This document shows positions 909-27,093 of a stretch of DNA of 64,000 bases, one piece after another; within the stretch, counting starts at the first letter, position 1, and every line of letters begins with the position of its first letter. Under the pieces are notes generated by a model, which searched no databases, was not told the DNA's origin, and saw nothing but the letters and a program-made list of their open reading frames with translations. The stretch comes from Candidatus Woesearchaeota archaeon. GTDB taxonomy: Archaea; Nanobdellota; Nanobdellia; Pacearchaeales; GW2011-AR1. The position numbers were made by a program, and so were the translations under genes. The stretch spans positions 15,757-79,756 of the forward strand of contig CAZTIP010000002.1 of the NCBI GenBank assembly GCA_964613185.1. Direction: 5' to 3'.

Positions 909-2306
909 TTGATGGTTGAACAGATTGAAAAATTTACTAAGGAATTTTTTGAAAATTTAAAAAGTTCTCTTACTTTTGAAGGAGATATTTTAGTTGTGAG
1001 TAATGTCCCTAAAAGTTTTGAGGATATTTTTGGTAAATCTGCCCCTTATAGGCTGAGTTTTGAAAAAGATTTTGAAGGCGGAGAGTTTGTTGGAAAGGGA
1101 AGTCAGTTTTTTTCTGCGATGATGAAATATTTGGAAAATTCTGGAAAGACTACATTACTTAAAATAGATTTTGATGTTGACCCCTTGAAAGAAATTGAGA
1201 AGGTTATTTCTTTGAAAAATTGTGAAATAGATAACTTGGTTAAAAAACATAAAAATAATTTTATTTCTCGTTTTACTTTTATGACTTCGTTTCAATATTT
1301 GAATGAATCTGAGAAAGTTGTTAATGAAATTTATGTTCATGAAAATTCTGTTGTTGAGGGAAATTTGGAAGGATATAAAATTATTGAAGGGATGGGGAAT
1401 GAAGCGACTTCAAAAAATTTGGAAAATGATTATTCTTTGGCAAGAAATTTCTTGAAAAATCTTTTGAAAATTAAAACTGAAGAAGTTGGAAAAATTCTTG
1501 AGGAAAAATTGGGGGAAGAAGTTGAACGAATTAGAAAACATTATGGTCATTTGATTGGAGAACTTGGAGGAGATTTATCTGAACGTTTAGGGAAAATTAA
1601 AGAGGTTGAATTGCAATTGAGAACGTCTGATGGAGAAGATGCCGAAGTTTTGAGACAACGATTGGAGAGATTGCAAAAAGGAATAGTTAAGGTGGGTGAT
1701 GATGATGCTAAGGAGAGAATATTAAAAGAACAAGAATTTACTATTAAAGGTGCGAGACACAAATATAGCTTGAATATTAATAATAATTTAGTTAATACGA
1801 CTATTATTTATTATCCGGTTTTTTTGTTTAATTTATTTTTGAAAGGGAAAAATTCTAAAAGATTTATTGAAATGACTTATGACCCTTTAATTAAGAAATT
1901 GAATAATTTAAAATGTGAGTCTTGTGATGTTTCTGTTGAGGAAATTAATCTTTGTTCTAATGGGCATATTACTTGTGAGAATTGTTTTGGTGGGTGCGGA
2001 GATTGTGGAAATAAATTTTGTGAAAAATGTTTGAAGAAGTCTTGTTCTTCTTGTGGGAAATTGATGTGTAAAAATTGTTCAAAAATCTGTTTTGGTTGTG
2101 GGAAATCTGTTTGTGCAGACCATTTTAGGACTGACGGAGTTAGTGGAGAAAAAAGATGTGTTAGATGTCTCCGAGCTTGTTTAAGATGTCACTGTTTGAC
2201 GAATTCAAAATATTTTGGAGAATCGTTGGATGGTTCAAAGGTTTGTCAGAAATGTTTGGGTGTTGAAAAAAGAAGAGGGGCAATGAAAAGAATTTTTGAG
2301 GAGTGA
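909..2306 (+). CDS. Hypothetical protein with an N-terminal coiled-coil-like region and a C-terminal multi-zinc-ribbon tail
   Basis: ORF of 465 aa. The last ~115 aa hold 23 Cys, mostly arranged as CxxC pairs. It lies directly downstream of the SNF2 fragment on the same strand. Confidence 0.5.
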   Translation: MMVEQIEKFTKEFFENLKSSLTFEGDILVVSNVPKSFEDIFGKSAPYRLSFEKDFEGGEFVGKGSQFFSAMMKYLENSGKTTLLKIDFDVDPLKEIEKVISLKNCEIDNLVKKHKNNFISRFTFMTSFQYLNESEKVVNEIYVHENSVVEGNLEGYKIIEGMGNEATSKNLENDYSLARNFLKNLLKIKTEEVGKILEEKLGEEVERIRKHYGHLIGELGGDLSERLGKIKEVELQLRTSDGEDAEVLRQRLERLQKGIVKVGDDDAKERILKEQEFTIKGARHKYSLNINNNLVNTTIIYYPVFLFNLFLKGKNSKRFIEMTYDPLIKKLNNLKCESCDVSVEEINLCSNGHITCENCFGGCGDCGNKFCEKCLKKSCSSCGKLMCKNCSKICFGCGKSVCADHFRTDGVSGEKRCVRCLRACLRCHCLTNSKYFGESLDGSKVCQKCLGVEKRRGAMKRIFEE

Positions 2307-2391
2307 GAATATTTATAAAGTGGAAGTTCTTTTATTTTTTAGAAAATGGAAGTAAGTTTGAAAAACTTCCGAACATTTTCGATAAACAAAA

Positions 2392-3024
2392 ATGGAAGTG
2401 AAATTTAATGTTAAAAAGTCCTTTGGGTATTTTTTATTTATGGCAGTTTTTTTATCTATGAGTTTATTTTTGGTAGGGGCTTATGGTGGAAATAATGCTC
2501 CTGTAATGGGGCACAGCGGAGGAGAGATTGAAGTTACTACTACTTTTGGAGGGTCCCAGACTCGTACTTTGAATGATTTTGGGGATGATGTTGAGACTGC
2601 AGATTATTCCCATCAATCTCAAATAGATGATTTGAAATGTACTTTTGTCAGTTTGGGTTCAAATTCTGAAGAAACTATTGAGGTTCCTCAAAAATGTTTA
2701 AAGGCAGGTTGTATTGTTAAGGTAAGTGCCAAAGATATTATAGGAAATAGAGTGACATCTTATGGAATTTATTCTCAAGATTTTTCGATAAGCAGTGTTC
2801 AAAAATTTTATTTGACAAAATTTAGAGATAATAATGTTAATGGGATTTCATTTTCTGGAGGAGATAATGGGGATTCTATAAATACTCTTCTTTTTAATGT
2901 TCATTCTACACAAGGATTAAAAATTATGGATGATGGAAATCTGGAACAGGATTTGACCAAATGGACAAAATTAGATTCTTCAGGGAGTTCTAGTTGGGAT
3001 ATTACTTCTATACAATTTTGCTAA
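2392..3024 (+). CDS. Hypothetical secreted or membrane-anchored protein
   Basis: ORF of 210 aa with an N-terminal hydrophobic segment (FGYFLFMAVFLSMSLFLVGAYG). Confidence 0.4.
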   Translation: MEVKFNVKKSFGYFLFMAVFLSMSLFLVGAYGGNNAPVMGHSGGEIEVTTTFGGSQTRTLNDFGDDVETADYSHQSQIDDLKCTFVSLGSNSEETIEVPQKCLKAGCIVKVSAKDIIGNRVTSYGIYSQDFSISSVQKFYLTKFRDNNVNGISFSGGDNGDSINTLLFNVHSTQGLKIMDDGNLEQDLTKWTKLDSSGSSSWDITSIQFC

Positions 3025-3248
3025 TTTAAAATTTTTGAATCAAACGAGACCGCATGAAATCTCCTCGTAAATCACTCTAAAATTTTCTAATCACTTCTTT
3101 GAGAAAATTCAGACAATTCACTCCCCTCCATTTTGATGGGTCTTCGAACTCCTCACGAGCTCGGAGGGAATCGGCTTCGTGTCTGAGACACTCGCTAACA
3201 TCGGTCTCGCTTTGCTCACTGCGTTGTTAAACCCAAAGGTTCGATGAA

Positions 3249-3320
3249 CGAGCTCGGAGGGAATCGAACCCCCATCAACAGGGCCGAAACCTGTTATTCT
3301 GTCCATTAAACTACGAGCTC
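3249..3320 (-). tRNA. tRNA-Arg(TCG)
   Basis: The reverse complement reads GAGCTCGTAGTTTAATGGACAGAATAACAGGTTTCGGCCCTGTTGATGGGGGTTCGATTCCCTCCGAGCTCG. It has a 7-bp acceptor stem, the anticodon loop TTTCGGC and the T-loop GTTCGATTCC. The D-arm pairing is non-canonical. Confidence 0.7.
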
Positions 3321-3459
3321 ATTTGAGCAAGTTGTTTTCTTGAAGCAATGATTTGCTACCTTAAACTACGAGCTCTTTAATATTAATGTGACTTGGAAAG
3401 AACTTATAAAATTATCTAATTTCTTTTTTCATTAGTTTTAAATAACCTTATTCCCTTTT

Positions 3460-4923
3460 TTGTTGATGGGTAAGAAAAAAACGACATTCAATATTTCTAA
3501 ATCTGAGAACTTTTCAGAGTGGTATTCTGAGATTTTGAGTAAGGCCGAGGTTACTGATATTCGTTATGGTGTTAAGGGGTTTGTTGTGATTCGTCCGTGG
3601 GGTGCAAGAATTATGGAAAATATGTATCGGATTTATTCTTCTGCATTAAATCGAACCGGACATAATCCTGCAGTTTTTCCTACTTTGATTCCTGAAGGAA
3701 ATTTTAAGAAAGAAGCTGGACATGTGGAGGGATTTGCTCCGGAAGTTTTTTGGTTGGAGAATAAACAAGGTGACGAAAAGTTGGCTTTGAGACCAACCAG
3801 TGAAACTGCTTTTTATGAAATGTATAGTCAATGGATTAGAAGTTATCGAGATTTACCTGTTAAAATTTATCAGAGGGCGAATATTTTTCGTTATGAAACT
3901 AAAGCGACTCGTCCGTTGATTCGTTCAAGGGAATTTCATTGGATTGAATCTCATAATGCATTTGCTACTAAGAAAGAGGCAGAAGCACAGGTTTTAGAGG
4001 ATATTGAAATGACGGATGCAGTTATGCATAATGTTTTTGGTGTTCCGTTTTTGCCTATGAGAAGACCTCAATGGGATAAATTCCCGGGGGCAGAATATAC
4101 TGTTGGAAGTGATTCAATTATGCCGGATGGGAAAGTTCTTCAACAACCTTCAACCCATATGCTTGGGCAACACTTCTCTAAAGCTTTTGATGTAAAATTT
4201 GTAGATGAAAAAGAAAAGGAAAAACATGTTTGGCAAACCTGTTATGGTCCTGCGATGTCGAGAATTATGGCTTCTGTAATTTCAGTTCATGGAGATGATA
4301 ATGGGTTAATTTTGCCTTATACTTTGTCTCCTGTTCAAGTTGTGATTGTTCCGATGTATTCTGAAGATTCAAAAATAAAGAAAAAAATTGATGAATTTTT
4401 GGAAAAAATTGGGGATGATTTTTTTAGAGAAAATATTGATATTGAAGTTGATGATTCAAATAAACGACCTGGAGAGAAATTTTTTAAGTGGGAAATGAAG
4501 GGAGTCCCGTTTAGAATTGAACTTGGAGAAAATGAATTGAATTCTGGCGAGGTTACAGTTTTTATTAGAGATACTAAAGAAAAAGTTTCCATTAAGTTTG
4601 AAGATTTGGTTGAAGATATTAAAAATTTGGGTGCGGAATTTGATGCTCGTTTGAAATCTCGAGCTGACGAATTTTTTGAGAATAGGATAATTGAATGTTC
4701 GAATAAGGCATCTATAAAAAAAGCTTTTAATTCTGGAAATGTCGCGAAATTTAATTTTTGTTCTGCTGATGAAGCTGGAAAAGGTTGTGCAGAATATGTT
4801 GAGAAAGAATTATCTGCTAGAATTATGGGTGTTCGTCATGATGTTGTGGAAAAAGCTAAAGGAAAATGTGAATTTTGTGGAAAGAAGGCTGGTGTCGTGG
4901 TTTATGCAGGGAAGAGTTATTGA
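3460..4923 (+). CDS. proS: Prolyl-tRNA synthetase, archaeal/eukaryotic class II type
   Basis: Class II ProRS motifs are present (YRDLPVKIYQRANIFRYE...REFHWIESH). The C-terminus has an archaeal-type zinc-binding region (CEFCGKKA). Confidence 0.9.
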   Translation: MLMGKKKTTFNISKSENFSEWYSEILSKAEVTDIRYGVKGFVVIRPWGARIMENMYRIYSSALNRTGHNPAVFPTLIPEGNFKKEAGHVEGFAPEVFWLENKQGDEKLALRPTSETAFYEMYSQWIRSYRDLPVKIYQRANIFRYETKATRPLIRSREFHWIESHNAFATKKEAEAQVLEDIEMTDAVMHNVFGVPFLPMRRPQWDKFPGAEYTVGSDSIMPDGKVLQQPSTHMLGQHFSKAFDVKFVDEKEKEKHVWQTCYGPAMSRIMASVISVHGDDNGLILPYTLSPVQVVIVPMYSEDSKIKKKIDEFLEKIGDDFFRENIDIEVDDSNKRPGEKFFKWEMKGVPFRIELGENELNSGEVTVFIRDTKEKVSIKFEDLVEDIKNLGAEFDARLKSRADEFFENRIIECSNKASIKKAFNSGNVAKFNFCSADEAGKGCAEYVEKELSARIMGVRHDVVEKAKGKCEFCGKKAGVVVYAGKSY

Positions 4924-4964
4924 GTTTTCTAAATCTTTATAAATCCTTTAATGTTTTTTATTTT

Positions 4965-5243
4965 ATGGTAATTCCTATTGAGAAACAATCAAAACAGTTG
5001 GGTGATTTGATTAAGGGAGATTTATTTTTTATTAATGGGAAAGAGATGAAAGTAGACTCTCAATATGTTTTACAAGATCATGGGGAAATGAAAGAGATGG
5101 TTATCGAAGTTTTTAATCCTGAAAATGATAGGGAATATCAAATTAGATATTTTGATGACCAAATTGATACTAGCATAGAAGTTTATGAATTACAAAACGA
5201 ATTTCAATATGTTCGACGGGAACCAAAAAATGTTGCTTGGTAA
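4965..5243 (+). CDS. Hypothetical small protein (~92 aa from the internal Met)
   Basis: The ORF 4875..5243 overlaps the proS 3' end. The more likely start is the ATG at 4965, which follows an AT-rich TATA-like stretch. Confidence 0.3.
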   Translation: MVIPIEKQSKQLGDLIKGDLFFINGKEMKVDSQYVLQDHGEMKEMVIEVFNPENDREYQIRYFDDQIDTSIEVYELQNEFQYVRREPKNVAW

Positions 5244-5299
5244 TTTGAATTTTATCAATTGGAAATTTATCTTTTAAAATTATTTTTGAGAAATTTGAA

Positions 5300-5345
5300 T
5301 TTTCCAAAACATTTATATACTAATGGTTACCATTAGTATGCTTAT
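5300..5345. promoter_or_regulatory. Near-perfect palindrome (ACTAATGGTTACCATTAGT) plus a second ATGGTAACC half-site overlapping the start of a small ORF. Candidate operator.
   Basis: Inverted repeat read directly from the sequence at 5310-5330, with a repeated ATGGT(T/A)ACC motif at 5323 and 5344. Confidence 0.4.
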
Positions 5346-5520
5346 GGTAACCTTAAAGAGAAAAGATACGGCAGTTAAAGTTAGTAAATGGTTGGATAAA
5401 AAAGTTCAACATTATATTTCTGATAGGAAAATTAAAGTAGAGTTTCCGTCTAAACGAAACTTTATTGATAAAGCGGTTATGCGTTTGCTGGAGGAAAAAG
5501 GTGTGAGGTTAGATAAATGA
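5344..5520 (+). CDS. Small basic protein, possibly a ribbon-helix-helix-like DNA-binding protein
   Basis: 58-65 aa depending on start (MVTLKRKDTAVKVSKWL...MRLLEEKG). The palindrome overlaps its start. A 41-aa ORF follows at 5532..5657. Confidence 0.3.
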   Translation: MVTLKRKDTAVKVSKWLDKKVQHYISDRKIKVEFPSKRNFIDKAVMRLLEEKGVRLDK

Positions 5521-5666
5521 TTGGAGGAAAAATGGACAAAATTGAAAAAGCAAAAGAAATGTTTGAAATTTTAGAGGGTAGAAAATCAAACCATTCTGTT
5601 GAAATTGCTAAAAGAGCTTTTTATATTCAGGAAAGACTTTCTAAACTTAAAAATTAATTTTATTTT

Positions 5667-6674
5667 TTAATTATTTTTGAAAATACCTTTTGCAAAAGTT
5701 TTAGCAACAATTAAAGGAAAGAGAATTGAAGCGTCTCCATGAACTTTGATTGTTTTTGCTTCCTTTGTAATTTTTCCCCAAGATACTGCTTCGTCTGGTC
5801 TTGCTCCGGCGTCAGAACCATCAAATTCTTGAGCATTGTTGATATAAACTGCATAATCTGCCCCATTTCTAAACATATTGGCATTACAAATGTGATGTTT
5901 TATCACTCCGCCTCCCAAAATTATCATCCCTGTTTTTTCTTTTCCGATTGTTGAATTATTGATTTCCACAATATCTTCTGAAACATCTACTTTAAATTCA
6001 GGGTGTTTTGATTTGAAAAAATAAATCATATCTCCTATTGAACCGTCAGTTATTGCGGGACAGAATACAGGAATTTTATTTTTTTCAGCCCAGTAATAAA
6101 TTGAGTTTTCATTTTTAATTGCTTTCCCCAATAAGTGAATTAATTTTTTTGGAGTTATAATTTCTCCAGTTTCTTTTTGTTTTTCGTTTTGTTTTTCTAA
6201 TAATGGGATTACAAAATCTTCAAATCTACAATATCTTGAATTTGGAATTAAAATATTTCCTGCTCGATTTATTCCAGAATTTCTTAATTCTTTCCCTGAT
6301 TTGTTAAATGAACCAATTTTGAAATCCCCCAAACATTTTATTATATCTTCTTCAATTCCTCCCGCTGTTGTTACAATTGCATCAATTAATTTGTGTTGGA
6401 CTAGAAATCTGAAAATTTCTCTTAGTCCTCCCGTCACCATATTTGAAGTATATCCCAAATAAATAAATGAATTATTTTCTCTCATCTCTTTGATTATTTG
6501 AATTGCTTTTGAAAGATTTGTTGCTTGTGCCCCCGAGGTTGCGTAACTATCAATTATTTTTTCATAATTTATCCCCTTGTTAAAATCATAACCCTTTACC
6601 GAAATTCCTTCTGCTTCCTCACTTTCTCTAAGAATATTTTCTCTTGCAATATTTTCTTTTTCTTTAGATTCCAT
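5667..6674 (-). CDS. dys: Deoxyhypusine synthase
   Basis: Deoxyhypusine synthase motifs are present (GGGVIKHHICNANMFRNGADYAVYINNAQEFDGSDAGARPDEAVSWGKI). Length is 335 aa. Confidence 0.9.
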   Translation of the reverse strand: MESKEKENIARENILRESEEAEGISVKGYDFNKGINYEKIIDSYATSGAQATNLSKAIQIIKEMRENNSFIYLGYTSNMVTGGLREIFRFLVQHKLIDAIVTTAGGIEEDIIKCLGDFKIGSFNKSGKELRNSGINRAGNILIPNSRYCRFEDFVIPLLEKQNEKQKETGEIITPKKLIHLLGKAIKNENSIYYWAEKNKIPVFCPAITDGSIGDMIYFFKSKHPEFKVDVSEDIVEINNSTIGKEKTGMIILGGGVIKHHICNANMFRNGADYAVYINNAQEFDGSDAGARPDEAVSWGKITKEAKTIKVHGDASILFPLIVAKTFAKGIFKNN

Positions 6675-7700
6675 TTATTTTTTTCTCTCTTTCATTATTC
6701 TTAATGTTGGTGGATTAGAATTTAAATATTGATTCTTTGAAGATTCTAATGAATAATTATGTCCTTTAGAAATTATTTTATCTATAGTTTCTTTATTTAT
6801 ATATCCGCTAACATCTAAGGTCCCTTCTTCATCAATTATTTTTGCAATTCCTCTTATTTCATTTTTATCCATATATTTCCGGAAATCATCTCTAATGTTT
6901 CTTATCTCTTCTGGAGAAGGATTTTTATTTTTTGATTTGAATATATATACAGGTAATGTTCGGATTCTTTTCAATTGATCTTCTAAACTGAGATTAATTT
7001 TACTTGCAATAAATTCGTAAAATAAGGATTCTTCGTTTGAAACTTTTAATGGAGATTCCCATGCCTCTTGAAAACTTGTATCTCCTTCTCTTTCCTTATA
7101 ACCCCTCATTGCATTTCTTAAAATTTCTTGATAAAAATCTCTTTCTTCTTTTTTAATTGTTGCAGGAGTATATCCTTTATTTTGAAGTAAAATGTTTTGC
7201 AAAAGTCTAGCAGTTCTTCCATTTCCATCTAGGAATGGATGTATCCTAGCTAAATGTAAATGTACTAATCCTGCCTTTTCTACTGGATGAATCTCGTTTG
7301 AATAATTTATTGTTGAAATTAATTTAGACATATCTCTCGGAATTTTTTTAAAATTTAATGGAAGCAATGGATCGCAAATTCCCCCGATTGTTAAATTTTC
7401 AGTTCTATAATTTCTAGAATTATTTCTTGAATCAATAAGATGTGCGGTTTTTATTATTAATTGGTCATTTAATTTTTCGTCTAAATTTGATGAAGCATAT
7501 CTCCAAGCATCTTCTAAACCTCCAATAACTATCCTATTTGTTTCGTCTAACTTTTTTTCTTCTTCTAAAAGATATGAATGTGCAACTGCTTCTTCCTCTA
7601 AATCTATTCTAACTAATGAAGTTAAATCTGTTCTTGGAAGAGATTCAATTTTAATTGCTTTTTTGTCAATTTCATCGAGTACATATTGGCTTATAATCAT
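6675..7700 (-). CDS. Fic/Fido-domain protein, a putative AMPylator
   Basis: Canonical Fic motif HPFLDGNGRTARLL. Its stop codon abuts the start codon of dys. Confidence 0.85.
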   Translation of the reverse strand: MIISQYVLDEIDKKAIKIESLPRTDLTSLVRIDLEEEAVAHSYLLEEEKKLDETNRIVIGGLEDAWRYASSNLDEKLNDQLIIKTAHLIDSRNNSRNYRTENLTIGGICDPLLPLNFKKIPRDMSKLISTINYSNEIHPVEKAGLVHLHLARIHPFLDGNGRTARLLQNILLQNKGYTPATIKKEERDFYQEILRNAMRGYKEREGDTSFQEAWESPLKVSNEESLFYEFIASKINLSLEDQLKRIRTLPVYIFKSKNKNPSPEEIRNIRDDFRKYMDKNEIRGIAKIIDEEGTLDVSGYINKETIDKIISKGHNYSLESSKNQYLNSNPPTLRIMKERKK

Positions 7701-7763: not shown

Positions 7764-8810
7764 TTATGAAGTTTTAGAAATCTCTTTAATATAATTTTTA
7801 AAATTATCAAATTCCTCCATTGGAATCATTGCACCAGTTGCTTCTTCATGTCCTCCACCTGTTGAACCTTCTATTTTTTCAACTATCTTTTCGGTTATTT
7901 TAAGAGCATTCTTTCCTCTAATTGAAATATTTGCCTTGGAAGGTCTTTTGAATGCCACTACAACTAATTTATCAGGGTGCATAAATGATAATTTATTGGA
8001 AATTTGGGAGGACATACTCGTTTCTCCAGAATATGAAAAAAATAATATCTTTGAATTTTTTTCTAAATTTCTTTCTGCTTTTTCAATTTGTTTTTTATAG
8101 AATTCATTTAATTCATTATATCTTTTATGAAATTGTCCGGTGTATTGATTTTCCTCTAATAAATCATATGCGTTTTTTGCCTTGAAAAGATATTTCATTA
8201 ACCTTACTACATTAGTTATTGAATCCATCAATCCAAAATTCAACATTAAAACCATCTTTCCAATTTCAGTGGAATGCAGAGCTTCAAAAGGAGTTTTTTT
8301 TGAGTTGAATAATTCTGGATATTCTTTTTCAAAATCTTTTGCGAATTCAGGCATGTAAACATCTCCAATGCATCCAATCATTGCTAACCATAAATCTTCT
8401 TTTTTGTTAAAGACCTTTTGAGCAATATAAGTTGTTGGTTCGGCAGAAGGGAGAGAATTATAATAATTTGTTTTTTCTATTAATTCTTTTTTAGTATTTG
8501 TTTTGTGATGGTCTATCCAAATTATTGGAATATTTTTTTTATCTACATCTTCTATAAATTCCTTGCTTGTTTCTGCTTTGTCTAAAATGACAACCGTATC
8601 TGGATTTAATTCATCTACTTTTCTTAAATATTGTTCTTTTAAATCCGGGAATGATTTAATTGCAACTCCTTTTCCTCTTCCAAGCGCTCTCCTTAAAATT
8701 AAAAAAGCACAGAGTCCGTCAGTGTCATTGTCAAAAAAGAATAGGGGGTTTTGAGCGTTCTCTAAATTTTCTCTTAATTCTGTAAGTTTTTCTTTTGAAA
8801 TCATTAGCAT
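7764..8810 (-). CDS. DHH-DHHA1 phosphoesterase (NrnA/GdpP-like; candidate c-di-AMP/pApA phosphodiesterase)
   Basis: DHH motif I (FDNDTDGL), DHH motif (IWIDHHKTN) and the DHHA1 GGGH motif (GGGHEEATGA). It overlaps the upstream cyclase gene by 7 nt. Confidence 0.8.
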   Translation of the reverse strand: MLMISKEKLTELRENLENAQNPLFFFDNDTDGLCAFLILRRALGRGKGVAIKSFPDLKEQYLRKVDELNPDTVVILDKAETSKEFIEDVDKKNIPIIWIDHHKTNTKKELIEKTNYYNSLPSAEPTTYIAQKVFNKKEDLWLAMIGCIGDVYMPEFAKDFEKEYPELFNSKKTPFEALHSTEIGKMVLMLNFGLMDSITNVVRLMKYLFKAKNAYDLLEENQYTGQFHKRYNELNEFYKKQIEKAERNLEKNSKILFFSYSGETSMSSQISNKLSFMHPDKLVVVAFKRPSKANISIRGKNALKITEKIVEKIEGSTGGGHEEATGAMIPMEEFDNFKNYIKEISKTS

Positions 8811-21942: not shown

Positions 21943-22025
21943 TTTGTTTTAGTGACGAGTGAGTATTTAAGAATTGTGATGCTGATTTCAATAATCTTTA
22001 AATACTTTCTAATTTTTTATTTATT

Positions 22026-25000
22026 ATGAAATGGAGAGGGATGTTAGTTGTTTATTTGTTTTTGATAGCGTTGTTTTCGTTTTTTATTTTTTGGGATTAT
22101 GAAGATGTTTTGAGGAACATTGATGACCCTTTAGGCCCAGATTTTTTTGATAGTTCTTCTTCAAGTTCTTCTAATGACGGGGACGATTCTCTTTGTGGGA
22201 ATACTTATTGTGATGATAATGCAGAGGAGGATGGGATTAGTTGCCCTTCGGATTGTGTGACTCAATGTAATGACGGTGTTGATAACGACGGTGATGGTGA
22301 TGTAGATAATTTGGATAGTGGTTGTGTTGATGGAAATGATAACTTGGAATCTACAAGTTCTGGCGGCGGTGGAGGTTCTTCTGGTGGTTCTTCTGGAGGC
22401 GGGGGAAGTTCTGGCGGCGGTTCTTCGGGAGGTGGTTCTCCCTGCGGTAATGGGGTTTGTGATTCTGGAGAAGACCCGTTTAGTTGCTCGGTAGATTGTG
22501 GAACTTTTAGGTGTAGTGATGGATTGGATAATGATGCTGATGGATTGATTGATTTTCCAAATGATACTGCATGTATTGATGGATTTGACGACGTGGAAAC
22601 AGAGTTTGGTTTATTTGAATGTTATGATGGATTAGATAATGATGGGGATAATTTGACAGATTATTCTAATGATTCTGGATGCTTTGATTATTTTGATGAT
22701 AATGAAAGTTTAACTAATTGTAATGATGGTTTAGATAATGATGGTGATGGTTGGGTTGATTTTCCTGCAGATATTGGATGTTTAGATTCTAATGATAATA
22801 ATGAGTCTAATGATTTTACTTCTTTTGAATGTTCAAATGGTGTTGATGATGATTTGGATGGTTTAATTGACGGTTATGACCCTATCTGTTTGATTTGGAA
22901 TGATAGTTCTGAATTTGCTGAATGTAATGATTTGTTAGATAATGATAATGATACATTGATTGATTATCCTGATGATACTGGTTGTTCTGATTTGAATGAT
23001 GATAGTGAAGATGCTGATTGTTCTGATGAATTAGATAACGACGGAGATGGGTGGTTTGATTTCCCTGATGATCCTGGTTGTGATAGTTTAGGAGATGGGA
23101 ATGAGTCTAACGATTTTACTTCTTTCGAATGCTCGGACGGTTCAGATAACGACGGAGATGGTTTAATTGACGGTTATGACCCTATCTGTTTGATTTGGAA
23201 TGACGTTTCTGAAACAGGGGAATGTAATGATTTGGTAGATAACGACGGAGACGGGTGGGTAGATTTGGGAGACCCTGGATGTAATGATGTTAATGTGGTT
23301 AGTGAAGTTAATGGAGATACAGGTTATCAATGTTCTGATGGTTCAGATAATGATGAGGATGGTTTAATTGACGGTTATGATTTAATGTGTAGTTCTCCCA
23401 TAGATAATGACGAATATTCGCAATGTAATGATGGGGTTGATAATGATAATGATACTTTGATTGATTATCCAGATGATACTGGTTGTTCTGATTTGAATGA
23501 TGATAGTGAAAATACGGAGAATAATCAAGGGGGGGATCAAAATTTAATCGCATATTATGATTTTGAGAATGATGTTTTGGATTCTTCTGGAAGTGGTTAT
23601 GATGGGGTAAATAATGGGGGAACTTTTGATGCTGATGCTAAGATTGGAAGTTATTCTTTGGGCTTAGATGGCATTTCTAGTTATGTTTCCTTGCCTTCAA
23701 ATATTGCACTTAATGGAAATCAAGCGACGATTGCTTTCTGGTTTAAGGCTAATGATGTTAATGATTGGGGGAGGTTTATTTCTAAGGCAAATGGTGTTCA
23801 GGATGATAACCATTGGTGGATGATGAGTTTGAATAATGGACAATTAAGAAATCGTTTGAAAACTTTAGGTTCTACTTCTACTTTGAAAGGGGGAAGTTTG
23901 TCGACGGGAATTTGGACTCACGGGGTGATGGTTTATGATGGTTCCGAGGTTAGAATTTATGTTGATGGTTCGCAAGTTGCGATGCAAGTGAAAACAGGAA
24001 CTATTGATGTTGATGATTCTATCGAGGTTTGGATTGGTGCTAATCCAGGAGGGACTGATTATTACGATGGATTGATGGATGATTTGAGAATTTATGATAG
24101 AGTTTTGACTGATGATGAAATTGCAAGTTTGGCTGGGACTTCTTCGAGTGGTTCGACTTGTGGAGATTCTGTTTGTGATGCTGGTGAAAATCCATTTAGT
24201 TGTTCTTCTGATTGTGGAACTTATGTTTGCTCTGATGGATTAGATAACGACGGAGATGGATGGACTGATTTGGCAGACCCTGGTTGTGTTGATGGTTATG
24301 ATACTGACGAGACTAATGGCGATTTAGGTTATCAATGTTCTGATGGTTCAGATAATGATGAGGATGGTTTAATTGATGGAAATGATTTGATGTGTAGTTC
24401 TTGGAATGATAATAGTGAGGCTACTGAATGTTCTGACGGTTTAGATAACGATGGAGATGGATTTTGCGATTGGTCTGGAGGGACTTGCACTGATGGAAGT
24501 GTTCTGGGAGATAGCGATTGTAGTAGTTCTGAAGATAATAGTGAAAGTGGAATTTTGGGATGTCCAAATGGAAAACCTGGGCCGAGTAATACTGGGCCTT
24601 TGACACCTAAAAGTCAATTGACTCAAATGGGAGGCTTAACAATAACTCAGGATAATACGGTTCTTGAAGGTGTTTATATTAATGGAGGAGTAACTATCAA
24701 GGCAGATAATGTCATTATTAGAGATTTTGTAATTGAATGTGGTGATGGGTATACAGGTGCATCGTATTGTGTTAAATCTATCGACGGAGGAAGTGTAACT
24801 CTTGAAGATGGAGAGATATTTGGTGGAATGAGTGCAGCAGTTTATGGGAGTGATTTTATTTTAAGGAGAACTGAAATGCATACTTTAAAAAGTACTGCCT
24901 TGAGGCCCGGATCTAATGTAATTGTTGAGGAAAATTGGATACATCCTCCAATTACCTTTAATGGTGGATCTGAAGTTCAAACCATTTTTTCAGGAGCTAA

Positions 25001-25349
25001 TTCAATTTTTAGATGTAATCATATTGATACTCCTTATGGTTCAAACCCTGGTCAAAGTCTAAGTGTTTCATGTAGCCTTATGAAAACTCGTAATTCAGCT
25101 ATTGATAATATGACTTTTGATTCAAATTGGTGTAATGGAGGGACTTACAGTTATTATGTTAATAGTGATAATTATGGGTGTCCTACCAATATAGCTATTA
25201 AAAATACTCAGTTTGGAAGAAATTATCGGTATGGATTATTATCTTCTAATTGTAATCCATATACTTGTGGAAATGTTTGGGAAGATACTGGAGATTTAGT
25301 TACTAGTGCTAATGGTGGTTGGGATCAAACTAGTGCCGTTTGTTCGTAA
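22026..25349 (+). CDS. Giant secreted surface protein: N-terminal TM/signal, Gly-Ser linker, >10 Cys/Asp-rich repeats, a LamG-like domain and a beta-helix-like C-terminus
   Basis: 1107 aa. The CxDGxDNDxDGxxD repeat recurs throughout (e.g. CSDGLDNDGDGWTD). A LamG/pentraxin-like segment spans SLPSN...WFKAND...RIYDRVLTDDEIASL. Confidence 0.7.
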   Translation: MKWRGMLVVYLFLIALFSFFIFWDYEDVLRNIDDPLGPDFFDSSSSSSSNDGDDSLCGNTYCDDNAEEDGISCPSDCVTQCNDGVDNDGDGDVDNLDSGCVDGNDNLESTSSGGGGGSSGGSSGGGGSSGGGSSGGGSPCGNGVCDSGEDPFSCSVDCGTFRCSDGLDNDADGLIDFPNDTACIDGFDDVETEFGLFECYDGLDNDGDNLTDYSNDSGCFDYFDDNESLTNCNDGLDNDGDGWVDFPADIGCLDSNDNNESNDFTSFECSNGVDDDLDGLIDGYDPICLIWNDSSEFAECNDLLDNDNDTLIDYPDDTGCSDLNDDSEDADCSDELDNDGDGWFDFPDDPGCDSLGDGNESNDFTSFECSDGSDNDGDGLIDGYDPICLIWNDVSETGECNDLVDNDGDGWVDLGDPGCNDVNVVSEVNGDTGYQCSDGSDNDEDGLIDGYDLMCSSPIDNDEYSQCNDGVDNDNDTLIDYPDDTGCSDLNDDSENTENNQGGDQNLIAYYDFENDVLDSSGSGYDGVNNGGTFDADAKIGSYSLGLDGISSYVSLPSNIALNGNQATIAFWFKANDVNDWGRFISKANGVQDDNHWWMMSLNNGQLRNRLKTLGSTSTLKGGSLSTGIWTHGVMVYDGSEVRIYVDGSQVAMQVKTGTIDVDDSIEVWIGANPGGTDYYDGLMDDLRIYDRVLTDDEIASLAGTSSSGSTCGDSVCDAGENPFSCSSDCGTYVCSDGLDNDGDGWTDLADPGCVDGYDTDETNGDLGYQCSDGSDNDEDGLIDGNDLMCSSWNDNSEATECSDGLDNDGDGFCDWSGGTCTDGSVLGDSDCSSSEDNSESGILGCPNGKPGPSNTGPLTPKSQLTQMGGLTITQDNTVLEGVYINGGVTIKADNVIIRDFVIECGDGYTGASYCVKSIDGGSVTLEDGEIFGGMSAAVYGSDFILRRTEMHTLKSTALRPGSNVIVEENWIHPPITFNGGSEVQTIFSGANSIFRCNHIDTPYGSNPGQSLSVSCSLMKTRNSAIDNMTFDSNWCNGGTYSYYVNSDNYGCPTNIAIKNTQFGRNYRYGLLSSNCNPYTCGNVWEDTGDLVTSANGGWDQTSAVCS

Positions 25350-25389: not shown

Positions 25390-27093
25390 TTGAGTTCTAT
25401 GGCTGTTAAAGAAAAAAGATTGATAACTGCAGCGTTGCCTTACATAAATAATGTACCTCATCTTGGACATATTGCCGGATCTCATTTACCTGCAGATATT
25501 TTTGCAAGATATTGTCGTTCTAAGGGTTACGAAACTCTTTTTATAGGGGGGACTGATGAAAATGGTTCTGCTTCTGAAATTGCCGCAAGTCAAATTGGTA
25601 TTGATTTGAAAATTTTTTCTACGAGACTTTACAAAGAACATAAAAAAATTTATGATTGGTTTGGAATTTCTTACGATAATTTTTCTAGAACTACAAAAAA
25701 AATTCATCATGATATGGTAAAGGATTTTTTTGATAAACTCAATACGAATGGTTTTGTTAAAGAAAGAATTTCGAAAGTTTTTTATTCTTCTAATGAAAAA
25801 AGATTTTTGGCAGATAGATATATCGTCGGAGAATGTCCTAAATGCGGATATTCAGATGCAAATGGGGATCAGTGTGAGAAGTGTACTTCTATTTTGGATT
25901 CCCTTGAACTTTTGAACCCTCGTTCCAAAATTTCTGGAGGGAAATTAGAAATTAAAGAAACAAATCATCTTTTTTTATCTTTAGATAAATTATCTCCTAA
26001 ATTGAAATCATGGATTAGTTCTCAAAAAGAATGGAGATCTCAGGTAAAAAATCTTGCTCTTGGATGGATTAAAGAAGGTTTGAAGGAAAGGGGGATTACA
26101 AGGGATTTGCATCATGGTGTTAAAATTCCTCTGAAGAATTATAGGAATAAAGTTTTTTATGTTTGGTTTGATGCACCTATTGGTTATGTTTCTTTTACAA
26201 AAGAGATTAGAGAAGATTGGAAAAAATTTTGGACAGGAAATGGAAAAGTTTACAATTTTTTAGGCAAGGATAACATCCCATTTCATACTATTTTTTGGCC
26301 GGCAGTAATTATGGGAAGTGAAAAAGTTAATCTTCCTTCGAAAGTTGTTGGATTACAATTTTTAAATTATGAAGGTAAGAAATTTTCTAAAAGTAAACAG
26401 GTCGGAGTTTTTTGTGAAAAATTACCTCAACTTGAACTTAGTCCAGATATTTGGAGGTCTTATTTGACTCTGATAATGCCCGAATCTAATGACTCTGAGT
26501 TTAAATGGAAAGATTTTCGAGAACGAACAAATGCAGATTTAATCGGAAATTATGGAAATTATGTTAATAGAATTATTAAATTTGTGAATGTAAATTTTGA
26601 TGGGAAATTATCTAAGCCTTCTAAATCCAAAATAACTGAAATGGATTCTAAATTGATTAAGTTAATTTCTGAAACGAAGAAAAAAATTGAAGTTTATCTT
26701 GAAAATTCCGAATTGAGAAAAGCCTATCTTGAAGTTTTAAATTTGTGTAGTGCCGGAAATAAATATATTAATGATGCTGAACCTTGGAAAGTTATAAAAG
26801 AAGATTCCCAACGAGCAAATGATATTTATTATACAGGAGCATTATTGTTAAAAGCTGTTTCTGTTTTTTCTGCCCCTTTTCTCCCTAAGGTTTCCTTAGA
26901 GGTTTGGAAACAATTAGGACTTGAAGGAAGTCCACTTGATCATGGAATTTGGAATTCAGTTTTAATGGATTTTGGAAATGAACATTCTTTCGGAAAATCT
27001 AAAATTTTATTTAATAAGATAGGTGATGAAGATGTTAAAAAATATCGTGAAGAAGTTAGTAATGGAATTGATTTGAAAGGGTTTTTTAAGTGA
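25390..27093 (+). CDS. metG: Methionyl-tRNA synthetase
   Basis: HIGH-like HLGHIAGS, KMSKS-like KFSKSK, and a zinc knuckle CPKCGY...CEKC. The likely true start is the ATG at 25399. Confidence 0.9.
   Translation: MSSMAVKEKRLITAALPYINNVPHLGHIAGSHLPADIFARYCRSKGYETLFIGGTDENGSASEIAASQIGIDLKIFSTRLYKEHKKIYDWFGISYDNFSRTTKKIHHDMVKDFFDKLNTNGFVKERISKVFYSSNEKRFLADRYIVGECPKCGYSDANGDQCEKCTSILDSLELLNPRSKISGGKLEIKETNHLFLSLDKLSPKLKSWISSQKEWRSQVKNLALGWIKEGLKERGITRDLHHGVKIPLKNYRNKVFYVWFDAPIGYVSFTKEIREDWKKFWTGNGKVYNFLGKDNIPFHTIFWPAVIMGSEKVNLPSKVVGLQFLNYEGKKFSKSKQVGVFCEKLPQLELSPDIWRSYLTLIMPESNDSEFKWKDFRERTNADLIGNYGNYVNRIIKFVNVNFDGKLSKPSKSKITEMDSKLIKLISETKKKIEVYLENSELRKAYLEVLNLCSAGNKYINDAEPWKVIKEDSQRANDIYYTGALLLKAVSVFSAPFLPKVSLEVWKQLGLEGSPLDHGIWNSVLMDFGNEHSFGKSKILFNKIGDEDVKKYREEVSNGIDLKGFFK

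Follow-up and report, generated by a model that had tools for sequence, protein, structure and literature searches.

A Large Acidic Surface-Type Protein of a DPANN Archaeon as a Candidate Calcium-Dependent Adhesin

Introduction

Contact with host cells is essential to DPANN archaea, and few of the molecules responsible for it have been identified. Surface proteins with laminin G-like (LamG) domains are abundant in these archaea and have been proposed to act in host-cell interaction (PMC5498576, PMC7443923). The described examples, from Mia14 ("ARMAN") and from Nanohaloarchaeota, are large, organism-specific, secreted proteins of small genomes that combine a concanavalin A-like/LamG fold with PKD or beta-propeller partners, and some of them lie in pilus loci or genomic islands. 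Here, we describe a gene from a 64-kb stretch of DNA of a Candidatus Woesearchaeota archaeon (the whole stretch is called the window, and all coordinates are positions in it) whose 1107-aa product is likewise large, organism-specific, and probably secreted. Unlike those described examples, it joins the LamG domain to calcium-type repeats and a beta-helix, and its gene sits between housekeeping genes.

Three further groups of known proteins are needed to place it. The first consists of the extracellular proteins of Woesearchaeota and other DPANN archaea, Patescibacteria, Myxococcota, and Xanthomonadales-type bacteria that carry the NCBIfam repeat NF033662, a ~32-aa unit (C-x-D-G-x-D-N-D-x-D-G-x-x-D-x(4-5)-C-...-D-x-x-E) that the window protein shares; the set of three connectors, LamG in the middle of the repeat array, and beta-helix tip was not found elsewhere. 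The second is the C-rich domain of teneurins with its thrombospondin type 3 (T3)-like sites, which has in common with the window repeats the motif C-x-(D/N)-x-x-D-x-(D/E)-x-D-x-x-x-D...C and, as predicted for the window repeats, the lack of regular secondary structure (in teneurin, Ca2+ stabilizes it); teneurin, however, has one copy with six Cys and three disulfides, whereas the window protein has a two-Cys repeat in 14 copies. The third is the broad set of right-handed beta-helix carbohydrate-active enzymes (CAZymes) and adhesins (6KFN, 1DBG, 4OZZ, phage tailspikes, and PfbA 4MR0), which have the fold of the tip but only ~10% identity to it; at the level of sequence, no relation of the tip to a solved structure was found.

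What might a protein assembled from such parts be doing? We argue, at a probability of roughly 0.6, that it is a large, very acidic, modular cell-surface protein of a DPANN archaeon that mediates Ca2+-dependent adhesion to host-cell or surface glycans. That it would attach to a host in particular is plausible, this being the standard hypothesis of the field.

Results

Architecture of the Protein

The open reading frame (ORF) starts with ATG at 22026, ends at 25349 on the plus strand, and encodes 1107 aa, which are exactly the coordinates and the length given in an earlier note on this sequence. The layout proposed in that note—anchor or signal, Gly/Ser linker, acidic Cys/Asp repeats, LamG, and beta-helix—is borne out by profile matches, by hydropathy, and by a model of the C-terminal domain, which we call the tip. 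From N to C terminus, the parts are these.

22026–22097, + strand: putative export/anchor segment, aa 1–24 (MKWRG plus an 18-residue hydrophobic stretch; Kyte-Doolittle)
22098–22193, + strand: acidic, Ser-rich linker, membrane-proximal, aa 25–56 (translation)
22194–22256, + strand: connector mini-module 1, CGNTYCDDNAEEDGISCPSDC, aa 57–77 (the three connector copies align mutually)
22266–22355, + strand: acidic two-Cys repeat 1, aa 81–110 (NF033662, regular expression, repeat alignment)
22356–22439, + strand: flexible Gly/Ser linker, aa 111–138 (Tandem Repeats Finder arrays at 22358–22432, translation)
22443–22499, + strand: connector mini-module 2, CGNGVCDSGEDPFSCSVDC, aa 140–158 (alignment)
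22512–23516, + strand: repeats 2–11 (ten copies), putative Ca2+-binding stalk, aa 163–497 (NF033662, repeat alignment, teneurin match)
23541–24143, + strand: LamG/concanavalin A-like jellyroll, aa 506–706, Pfam core 548–700 (Pfam PF13385)
24159–24215, + strand: connector mini-module 3, CGDSVCDAGENPFSCSSDC, aa 712–730 (alignment)
24228–24521, + strand: repeats 12–14, aa 735–832, the last a variant with an extra Cys (regular expression, repeat alignment)
24561–25349, + strand: right-handed beta-helix domain, aa 846–1107, plus stop codon (AlphaFold, Foldseek, homologues)

The whole protein has a predicted mass of 117 kDa, a calculated isoelectric point of ~4.05, and a net charge of about -194; Asp makes up 16.4% of its residues, Gly 13.5%, Ser 11%, and Cys 4.7%. 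The number of Cys is even in every module (6, 24, 12, and 10), and 9 of the 10 N-x-S/T sequons lie within the main repeat array. Both features are as one would expect of an extracellular, disulfide-bonded, and probably glycosylated protein. The Gly/Ser linker had been assigned to DNA at 22354–22440, where the tandem repeats listed above were indeed detected. We picture the folded parts as being joined by the flexible Ser- and Gly/Ser-rich linkers and by the small connectors, which would be disulfide bonded, with the stalk displaying two ligand-binding heads: the LamG domain, a lectin-like jellyroll partway along it, and the right-handed beta-helix at its distal tip.

The Acidic Repeats and Calcium

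A regular expression for the repeat, C-x-[DN]-x-x-D-[ND]-D-x-D-x-x-x-D, run over the whole protein finds 14 copies of ~32 aa (more than 10 had been claimed), and no copy occurs elsewhere in the six frames of the window. In 13 of the 14, a second Cys follows the first by 19–20 residues, and the 14th has Cys at +12 and +19. When all are aligned, C1, D6, D8, D10, D14, and C20 are invariant, and D3, N7, D17, and E28 are nearly so. NF033662 (acid_disulf_rpt, named the acidic double-disulfide repeat) matches 13 stretches of the protein (E = 1.1e-50; 169 bits against a cut-off of 41), the best of which spans profile positions 4–26 of 32, and the window repeats carry two Cys each. With a match so far above the cut-off, the repeat must be counted as a member of an already curated family.

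A query of two repeats against the PDB put teneurin C-rich domains on top (7plp, E = 0.0085; 6cmx, E = 0.044; and further teneurin entries), with feCsDgsDNDGDGLiDgyDPiC of the window aligned to taCgDskDNDGDGLvDcmDPdC of teneurin. The 1.5-Å structure of the teneurin-4 C-rich domain holds three Ca2+ ions, liganded by E835, D840, D843, N844, D845, D847, D851, D854, and D856; C838 and C857 form a disulfide, and Ca sites I and II resemble T3 repeats (PMC9058538). In the alignment, D3, D6, N7, D8, D10, D14, and D17 of the repeat fall on teneurin Ca2+ ligands and C1/C20 on the C838–C857 disulfide. The likeness of the teneurin consensus, ExxCx(D/N)xxDx(D/E)xDxxxDCxxx(D/E)CCxxxxCxxxxxC, to bacterial metal-binding motifs had already been remarked (PMC6425310). 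The window repeats match that six-Cys motif in its acidic ladder and in its first and third Cys, and they lack the other four.

The earlier comparison with thrombospondin type 3 or MopE repeats thus holds in one sense and fails in another. As the logic of a calcium site, it is reasonable, by way of the teneurin alignment; as membership, it does not, in that neither Pfam TSP_3 (PF02412) nor the MopE motif model PF11617 matches the window protein at E<=1. The MopE-type pattern, which we take to be C-D-G-x-D-N-D-C-D-G with an inner Cys, is absent from the window protein and from 119 of the 120 listed repeat homologues; PF11617 is listed for one homologue, P0031. Matches to calmodulin and EF-hands (E of 0.004–0.2) were rejected as membership, there being likeness to the DxDxDG loop only and no helix-loop-helix. 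Plausibly, then, the repeats work like T3/teneurin Ca2+ sites without belonging to those families. In the mechanism that we propose, each of the 14 repeats would bind Ca2+ through its invariant Asp/Asn ladder and be clamped by one disulfide, as in the teneurin C-rich domain and T3 repeats, and the Ca2+-bound repeats would form an extended, protease-resistant stalk without regular secondary structure.

A full-length search by way of the acidic repeat returns more than 2190 proteins, from Woesearchaeota, Patescibacteria, Myxococcota, Tahibacter, and others, in which the repeat is partnered with PKD, DUF11, Ig, LamG, subtilase, fungalysin, and other extracellular domains. The 120 listed homologues mostly have 10–30 copies in the two-Cys form seen in the window, and the best whole-protein homologues cover only 30–40% of the query. 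A literature search on the name of the NF033662 repeat found no paper.

Could the charge itself be the point? One might imagine a structural or ion-handling component of the envelope, associated with an S-layer or a matrix, whose ~200 negative charges gather divalent cations and which has no specific ligand. Its extreme acidity, 16% Asp, and 14 Ca-type repeats would suit such a role, and the repeat, of which more than 2000 archaeal and bacterial extracellular proteins with nothing else in common each have 10–30 copies, behaves as a generic module; one PDB relative of the LamG domain (4qvs) is, moreover, an S-layer-domain protein. We nevertheless regard this as very improbable: heads of the LamG and beta-helix types typically bind or process ligands, purifying selection acts on the tip (see below), and the Pfam and NCBIfam scans detected no S-layer or lattice-forming domain.

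The LamG Domain and the Connectors

The LamG-like domain claimed in the middle of the protein is the most straightforward of its parts: Pfam PF13385 (Laminin_G_3) matches aa 548–700 end to end (model positions 1–151 of 151; E = 1.5e-31; 110 bits against 27.6). Its sequence relatives in the PDB include an extracellular arabinanase domain (5hon_A, E = 2.6e-12) and the S-layer-domain protein already mentioned (4qvs_A, E = 1e-11). A match to TafC (36 bits against a cut-off of 410) was confined to the LamG region, and we do not take the protein for a Tat-fimbria subunit.

The connectors are small (~20 aa) and have four Cys, spaced CG-x3-C-x10-C-x3-C, or CG[DN]xxC-x(7-10)-C-xx(x)-DC across copies. 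They have no Pfam or NCBIfam match, and only 1 of the 120 listed proteins with the acidic repeat has one. In the window protein and in two related archaeal surface proteins, the metagenomic protein P0020 and one encoded at 1689–6695 of locus L001, they always stand at domain boundaries.

The two other proteins are instructive for what they share and what they lack. P0020 (858 aa) has the same N-terminal order of connector, acidic repeat, Gly/Ser linker, connector, acidic repeat, LamG (55% identity), and connector, but with 2 acidic repeats rather than 14 and with another C-terminal domain. The L001 protein ("archaeon isolate SI039_bin59," 1668 aa) has LamG, a connector, and the beta-helix at 42% identity and differs in having no acidic repeats, extra domains, a C-terminal transmembrane anchor, and a retained HADAEQ. 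From these layouts, it follows that heads and spacers have been shuffled among related archaeal surface proteins.

The Beta-Helix Tip

Modeled with an alignment of its homologues, the 262-aa tip is an all-beta stack of short strands, with a predicted local distance difference test score (pLDDT) of 87.9 and a predicted template modeling score (pTM) of 0.88. Foldseek matches it with a probability of ~1.0, at template modeling (TM) scores of 0.3–0.58, ~10% identity, and E values of ~3e-4 or weaker, to PL31 alginate lyase (6kfn), chondroitinase B (1dbg), GH87, GH28, AlgG (4OZZ), epimerases, phage depolymerases, and the pneumococcal adhesin PfbA (4mr0). By its modeled fold, the tip is a right-handed beta-helix, and no specific family can be assigned to it.

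Profiles alone would not have said so. The window tip matches no beta-helix model of Pfam even at E<=10, no NCBIfam model, and no Pec_lyase or PL-family profile; compared with the PDB by sequence, either singly or as a profile, it finds no real match. A hit to Caud_bapl16_2nd (E = 0.027) was set aside as noise. Its homologues do better: a word-indexed search gave 16 of them, at 30–53% identity, and 11 of the 17 aligned sequences (the query included) match PF13229 (Beta_helix). The beta-helix-like tail that had been proposed is, therefore, right as to the fold, by the model, Foldseek, and the PF13229 matches of the homologues, whereas the window sequence itself matches no beta-helix or pectate-lyase profile.

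The family to which the tip belongs is large. An exhaustive profile search gave 2021 cluster representatives at E<=1e-30 and 6435 at E<=1e-10, in proteins of 250–1500 aa in which the domain is usually C-terminal. In genomes, the hosts are mainly Planctomycetota, Flavobacteriaceae, and Actinomycetota, together with one archaeal metagenome-assembled genome. Neither Pfam nor NCBIfam has a model dedicated to the family, and no sequence relative of it has been solved. Planctomycetota and marine Flavobacteriaceae commonly carry it, the latter secreting it by the type IX secretion system (T9SS). A homologue in Tamlana laminarinivorans (locus L025), which keeps HADGxQ, carries a T9SS sorting tail and adjoins GH31 and GH13 genes. 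That other members of the family are secreted, this sorting domain being one example, supports a surface role for the window protein.

Motifs of the family include EDGEI, RR..H..D..K, WIH, HADGxQ, NWLNGG, FGRDY, and GNVWEDTG. In a comparison of 121 unique members, conservation among polar residues is highest for the D of xDGxK (93%), the H (95%), D (96%), and Q (94%) of HADGxQ, and the N of NNRFGRD (93%). The window tip departs from the family at all of these positions, reading KSTALR, NGGS--EVQ, and KNTQFGRN, and it keeps EDGEI, RR..H, NW.NGG, and GNVWEDTG. Its closest relatives (P0001–P0003) and the L001 archaeal protein keep the conserved polar residues. The loss of the family's His/Asp/Asp residues suggests binding rather than catalysis; in the proposed mechanism, a tip without this nearly invariant set is more likely to bind than to cleave a glycan or surface polymer.

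The obvious objection is that the tip might still be an enzyme. On such an account, the protein would be a secreted or tethered polysaccharide-degrading enzyme, its beta-helix a new CAZyme family with lyase or hydrolase activity, its LamG domain a carbohydrate-binding module, and its repeats a spacer; it would serve the archaeon in breaching or harvesting glycans of the host envelope or polysaccharide of the environment. The best Foldseek matches are indeed polysaccharide lyases and hydrolases; family members occur in marine degraders of polysaccharide, one of them the T9SS-tailed neighbor of GH31 and GH13 just described; the closest solved sequence relatives of the LamG domain include the arabinanase domain; and the four retained motifs are those of the family. 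What counts on the other side is that the best-conserved polar residues (the D of xDGxK and the H and D of HADGxQ) are gone from the window protein and from its orthologue alike, that the fold matches are generic and include a nonenzymatic adhesin, PfbA, and that Pfam and NCBIfam lack a model dedicated to the family, the PDB lacks a sequence relative, and none of the members has a known activity. We consider an active enzyme unlikely, and we return to adhesion as the reading that we favor.

An Orthologue Under Constraint

Evidence that the divergent tip matters to its owner comes from next door. The neighboring methionyl-tRNA synthetase (MetRS) has a 90%-identical relative on contig L089, where the gene order is that of the window: the target gene, MetRS, thermosome, PhoH-like, and CBS. 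The orthologue is represented at the start of this contig by its final 263 codons, whose translation shares 81% identity with the window protein and has the same substitutions at the conserved positions. Over the 262 codons of the tip, the ratio of nonsynonymous to synonymous substitution rates (dN/dS) between the two is 0.16. The low ratio and the shared substitutions together imply that the divergent tip is a maintained, functional variant. No other close orthologue was present in the collections searched.

Two independent assemblies from the sister lineage, L089 (1–793) and L090 (1–643), both break inside this gene, and L089 begins at the first codon past the repeat region, which is consistent with failure of the assembler in the repeats. 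Full-length alleles of such genes may, then, be underrepresented in metagenome assemblies.

The N-Terminus and Export

How would the protein reach the surface? It has a single hydrophobic segment (aa ~3–24, the only Kyte-Doolittle peak), with K2 and R4 ahead of it and acidic residues behind. On inspection of the sequence, no A-x-A-type cleavage site is visible after the positive n-region and the 18-residue h-region, and residues 1–24 are most likely an uncleaved signal-anchor. The N-terminal anchor or signal that had been claimed is there, in the form of this one segment, and it is from the segment that we infer secretion. It would carry the protein across the membrane and would probably remain as an N-in/C-out anchor.

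There is another way to look at these residues, as a class III (type IV prepilin-like) signal cut after R4-G5 by a prepilin peptidase, so that the mature hydrophobic N-terminus would enter a pilus-like filament or remain in the membrane; this would make the protein a large adhesin associated with pili. In archaea, signals of this class have [K/R]-[G/A] directly ahead of the hydrophobic domain and are cut by PibD/FlaK. In MKWRG/MLVVYLFLIALFSFF (a slash marks the cut), position -2 is basic, position -1 is Gly, and a hydrophobic H-domain comes immediately after; R4-G5/M6-L-V-V resembles processing sites known from archaeal pilins, which include KG/Q, RA/L, and RA/V (PMC4371748); and some LamG-like genes of the DPANN archaeon Mia14 are linked to type IV pilus loci (PMC5498576). 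The motif is short, however, and a sizeable share of N-terminal anchors with a positive n-region would match it by chance; the window genes scanned include no pilus ATPase, platform protein, or prepilin peptidase; and 1107 aa is far above the typical size of a pilin. We think a class III signal improbable and keep to the signal-anchor as the more probable description.

Internal DNA Repeats

The earlier note had described near-identical DNA repeats of ~200 nt within the gene and had suggested that they could mediate length variation. The description was overstated, as the repeats are 68–85% identical, with exact cores of at most 51 nt: 22790–23000 and 23090–23300 agree at 68%, 22800–22945 and 23100–23245 at 83%, and 22902–23017 and 23403–23518 at 85%. 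The longest exact direct repeat is the following.

23321–23371 and 24326–24376, + strand: 51-nt exact direct repeat, in acidic repeats 10 and 13

These copies lie 1005 nt (335 codons) apart and flank the whole LamG domain, and 60-nt windows at that offset are up to 95% identical. The exact repeat suggests that a duplication or a gene conversion took place recently inside the gene, and recombination between the two copies would delete LamG in frame. The exact window protein had no match in the protein collection searched, and the genome and metagenome scans yielded no strain-level orthologue that spans the repeats; the best tip-domain relatives in those scans are 42–44% identical and are without acidic repeats.

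One might go further and combine this arrangement with the altered tip. That is, the tip could be a dead pseudo-enzyme, drawn from a large family of secreted beta-helix proteins and repurposed as a host-glycan-specific adhesin on a Ca2+-rigidified stalk, with the 51-nt repeats allowing in-frame loss or gain of LamG. If this were true, such loss and gain would produce variable forms of the adhesin within a population. We offer the combined idea as a long shot.

Genome Context

The organism that carries the gene had been guessed to be an archaeon of the small-genome, episymbiotic kind, and both the MetRS relatives and the neighboring genes make it DPANN type: the named relatives of MetRS are Pacearchaeota, Nanoarchaeota, and Nanobdellota, all DPANN. 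The neighbors encode ribosomal protein S6e, aIF2-gamma, a DEDDh exonuclease, gyrase A/B, MetRS, thermosome, prolyl- and glutamyl-tRNA synthetases (ProRS and GluRS), TruD, and a phosphoenolpyruvate (PEP)-utilizing enzyme with PPDK_N and PEP-utilizers domains.

Upstream of the gene, one further feature was read off the sequence.

21997–22004, + strand: TATA-like element TTTAAATA, ~25 nt 5' of the ATG

Its placement would be compatible with a leaderless archaeal mRNA. An antisense ORF of 81 aa at 23308–23553 was dismissed as an incidental result of the repetitiveness and GAT/GGT richness of the coding strand.

Several other genes of the window deserve a word of their own. The MetRS ORF (25390–27093, + strand) is listed with a TTG start (MSSMAVKEK...), and in the orthologous contigs, the alignment begins at the ATG of MAVKEK/MVVKEK, upstream of which the sequences diverge. 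Translation therefore probably starts at the ATG at ~25399. Bacterial-type gyrase B (12541–14445, + strand) and gyrase A (14762–17329, + strand) stand in tandem in this archaeal genome. On the minus strand, a DisA-like diadenylate cyclase (8804–9847; DAC plus DisA-linker) adjoins a DHH/DHHA1 phosphoesterase (7764–8810), and from their domains, the pair could be responsible for synthesis and degradation of cyclic di-AMP in a small-genome DPANN archaeon. Also on the minus strand, a Fic/DOC-domain protein (6675–7700; E = 1.6e-15) is encoded between the genes for deoxyhypusine synthase and the DHH phosphoesterase.

Discussion

In this paper, we have asked what a single gene of a DPANN archaeon might be for, and our answer is adhesion: an anchored, calcium-stiffened stalk that would hold a lectin-like head and a beta-helix tip out toward the glycans of a host cell or another surface. 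Several points weigh against this answer, and they should be set down together. No host is known. The teneurin match on which the calcium argument leans is short and of marginal significance (E ~0.01–2), and teneurin has six Cys where the window repeats have two. AlphaFold, given a 13-sequence alignment of aa 138–500, returned a model of the repeat array with a pLDDT of 57, a pTM of 0.21, and no secondary structure, and Foldseek found no match for this model in the PDB; such a model does not itself speak against Ca2+ binding, the case for which is one made from sequence. The word "catalytic," if applied to the His, Asp, and Asp that the window tip lacks, is a guess, and the alignment there may be shifted near a 3-residue gap. 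The surroundings of the gene, finally, are housekeeping ones: among the window genes scanned, no pilus, secretion, or other surface-protein genes are adjacent.

It is also fair to say what kind of claim this is. The ORF, the identities of its domains and of its repeat family, the fold of the tip and the purifying selection on it, and the DPANN setting are what the analysis establishes; export topology, Ca2+ binding, the behavior of the stalk, loss of catalysis, and adhesion are proposed. All of the individual parts of the protein are already known, and it is a candidate of a known kind, not a new kind of system. Its value is that of a candidate rather than a discovery, because the parts are known and the role proposed for it is the default hypothesis of the field.

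What, then, does it add? It draws attention to a large family of beta-helix domains that has no dedicated curated model, and to a lineage within it, that of the window, that appears to have lost the conserved polar residues. And for the question of how DPANN archaea touch their hosts, it supplies a concrete and well-delimited contact candidate in a single gene, complete with an anchor, a Ca-type stalk, a lectin head, and a beta-helix tip.

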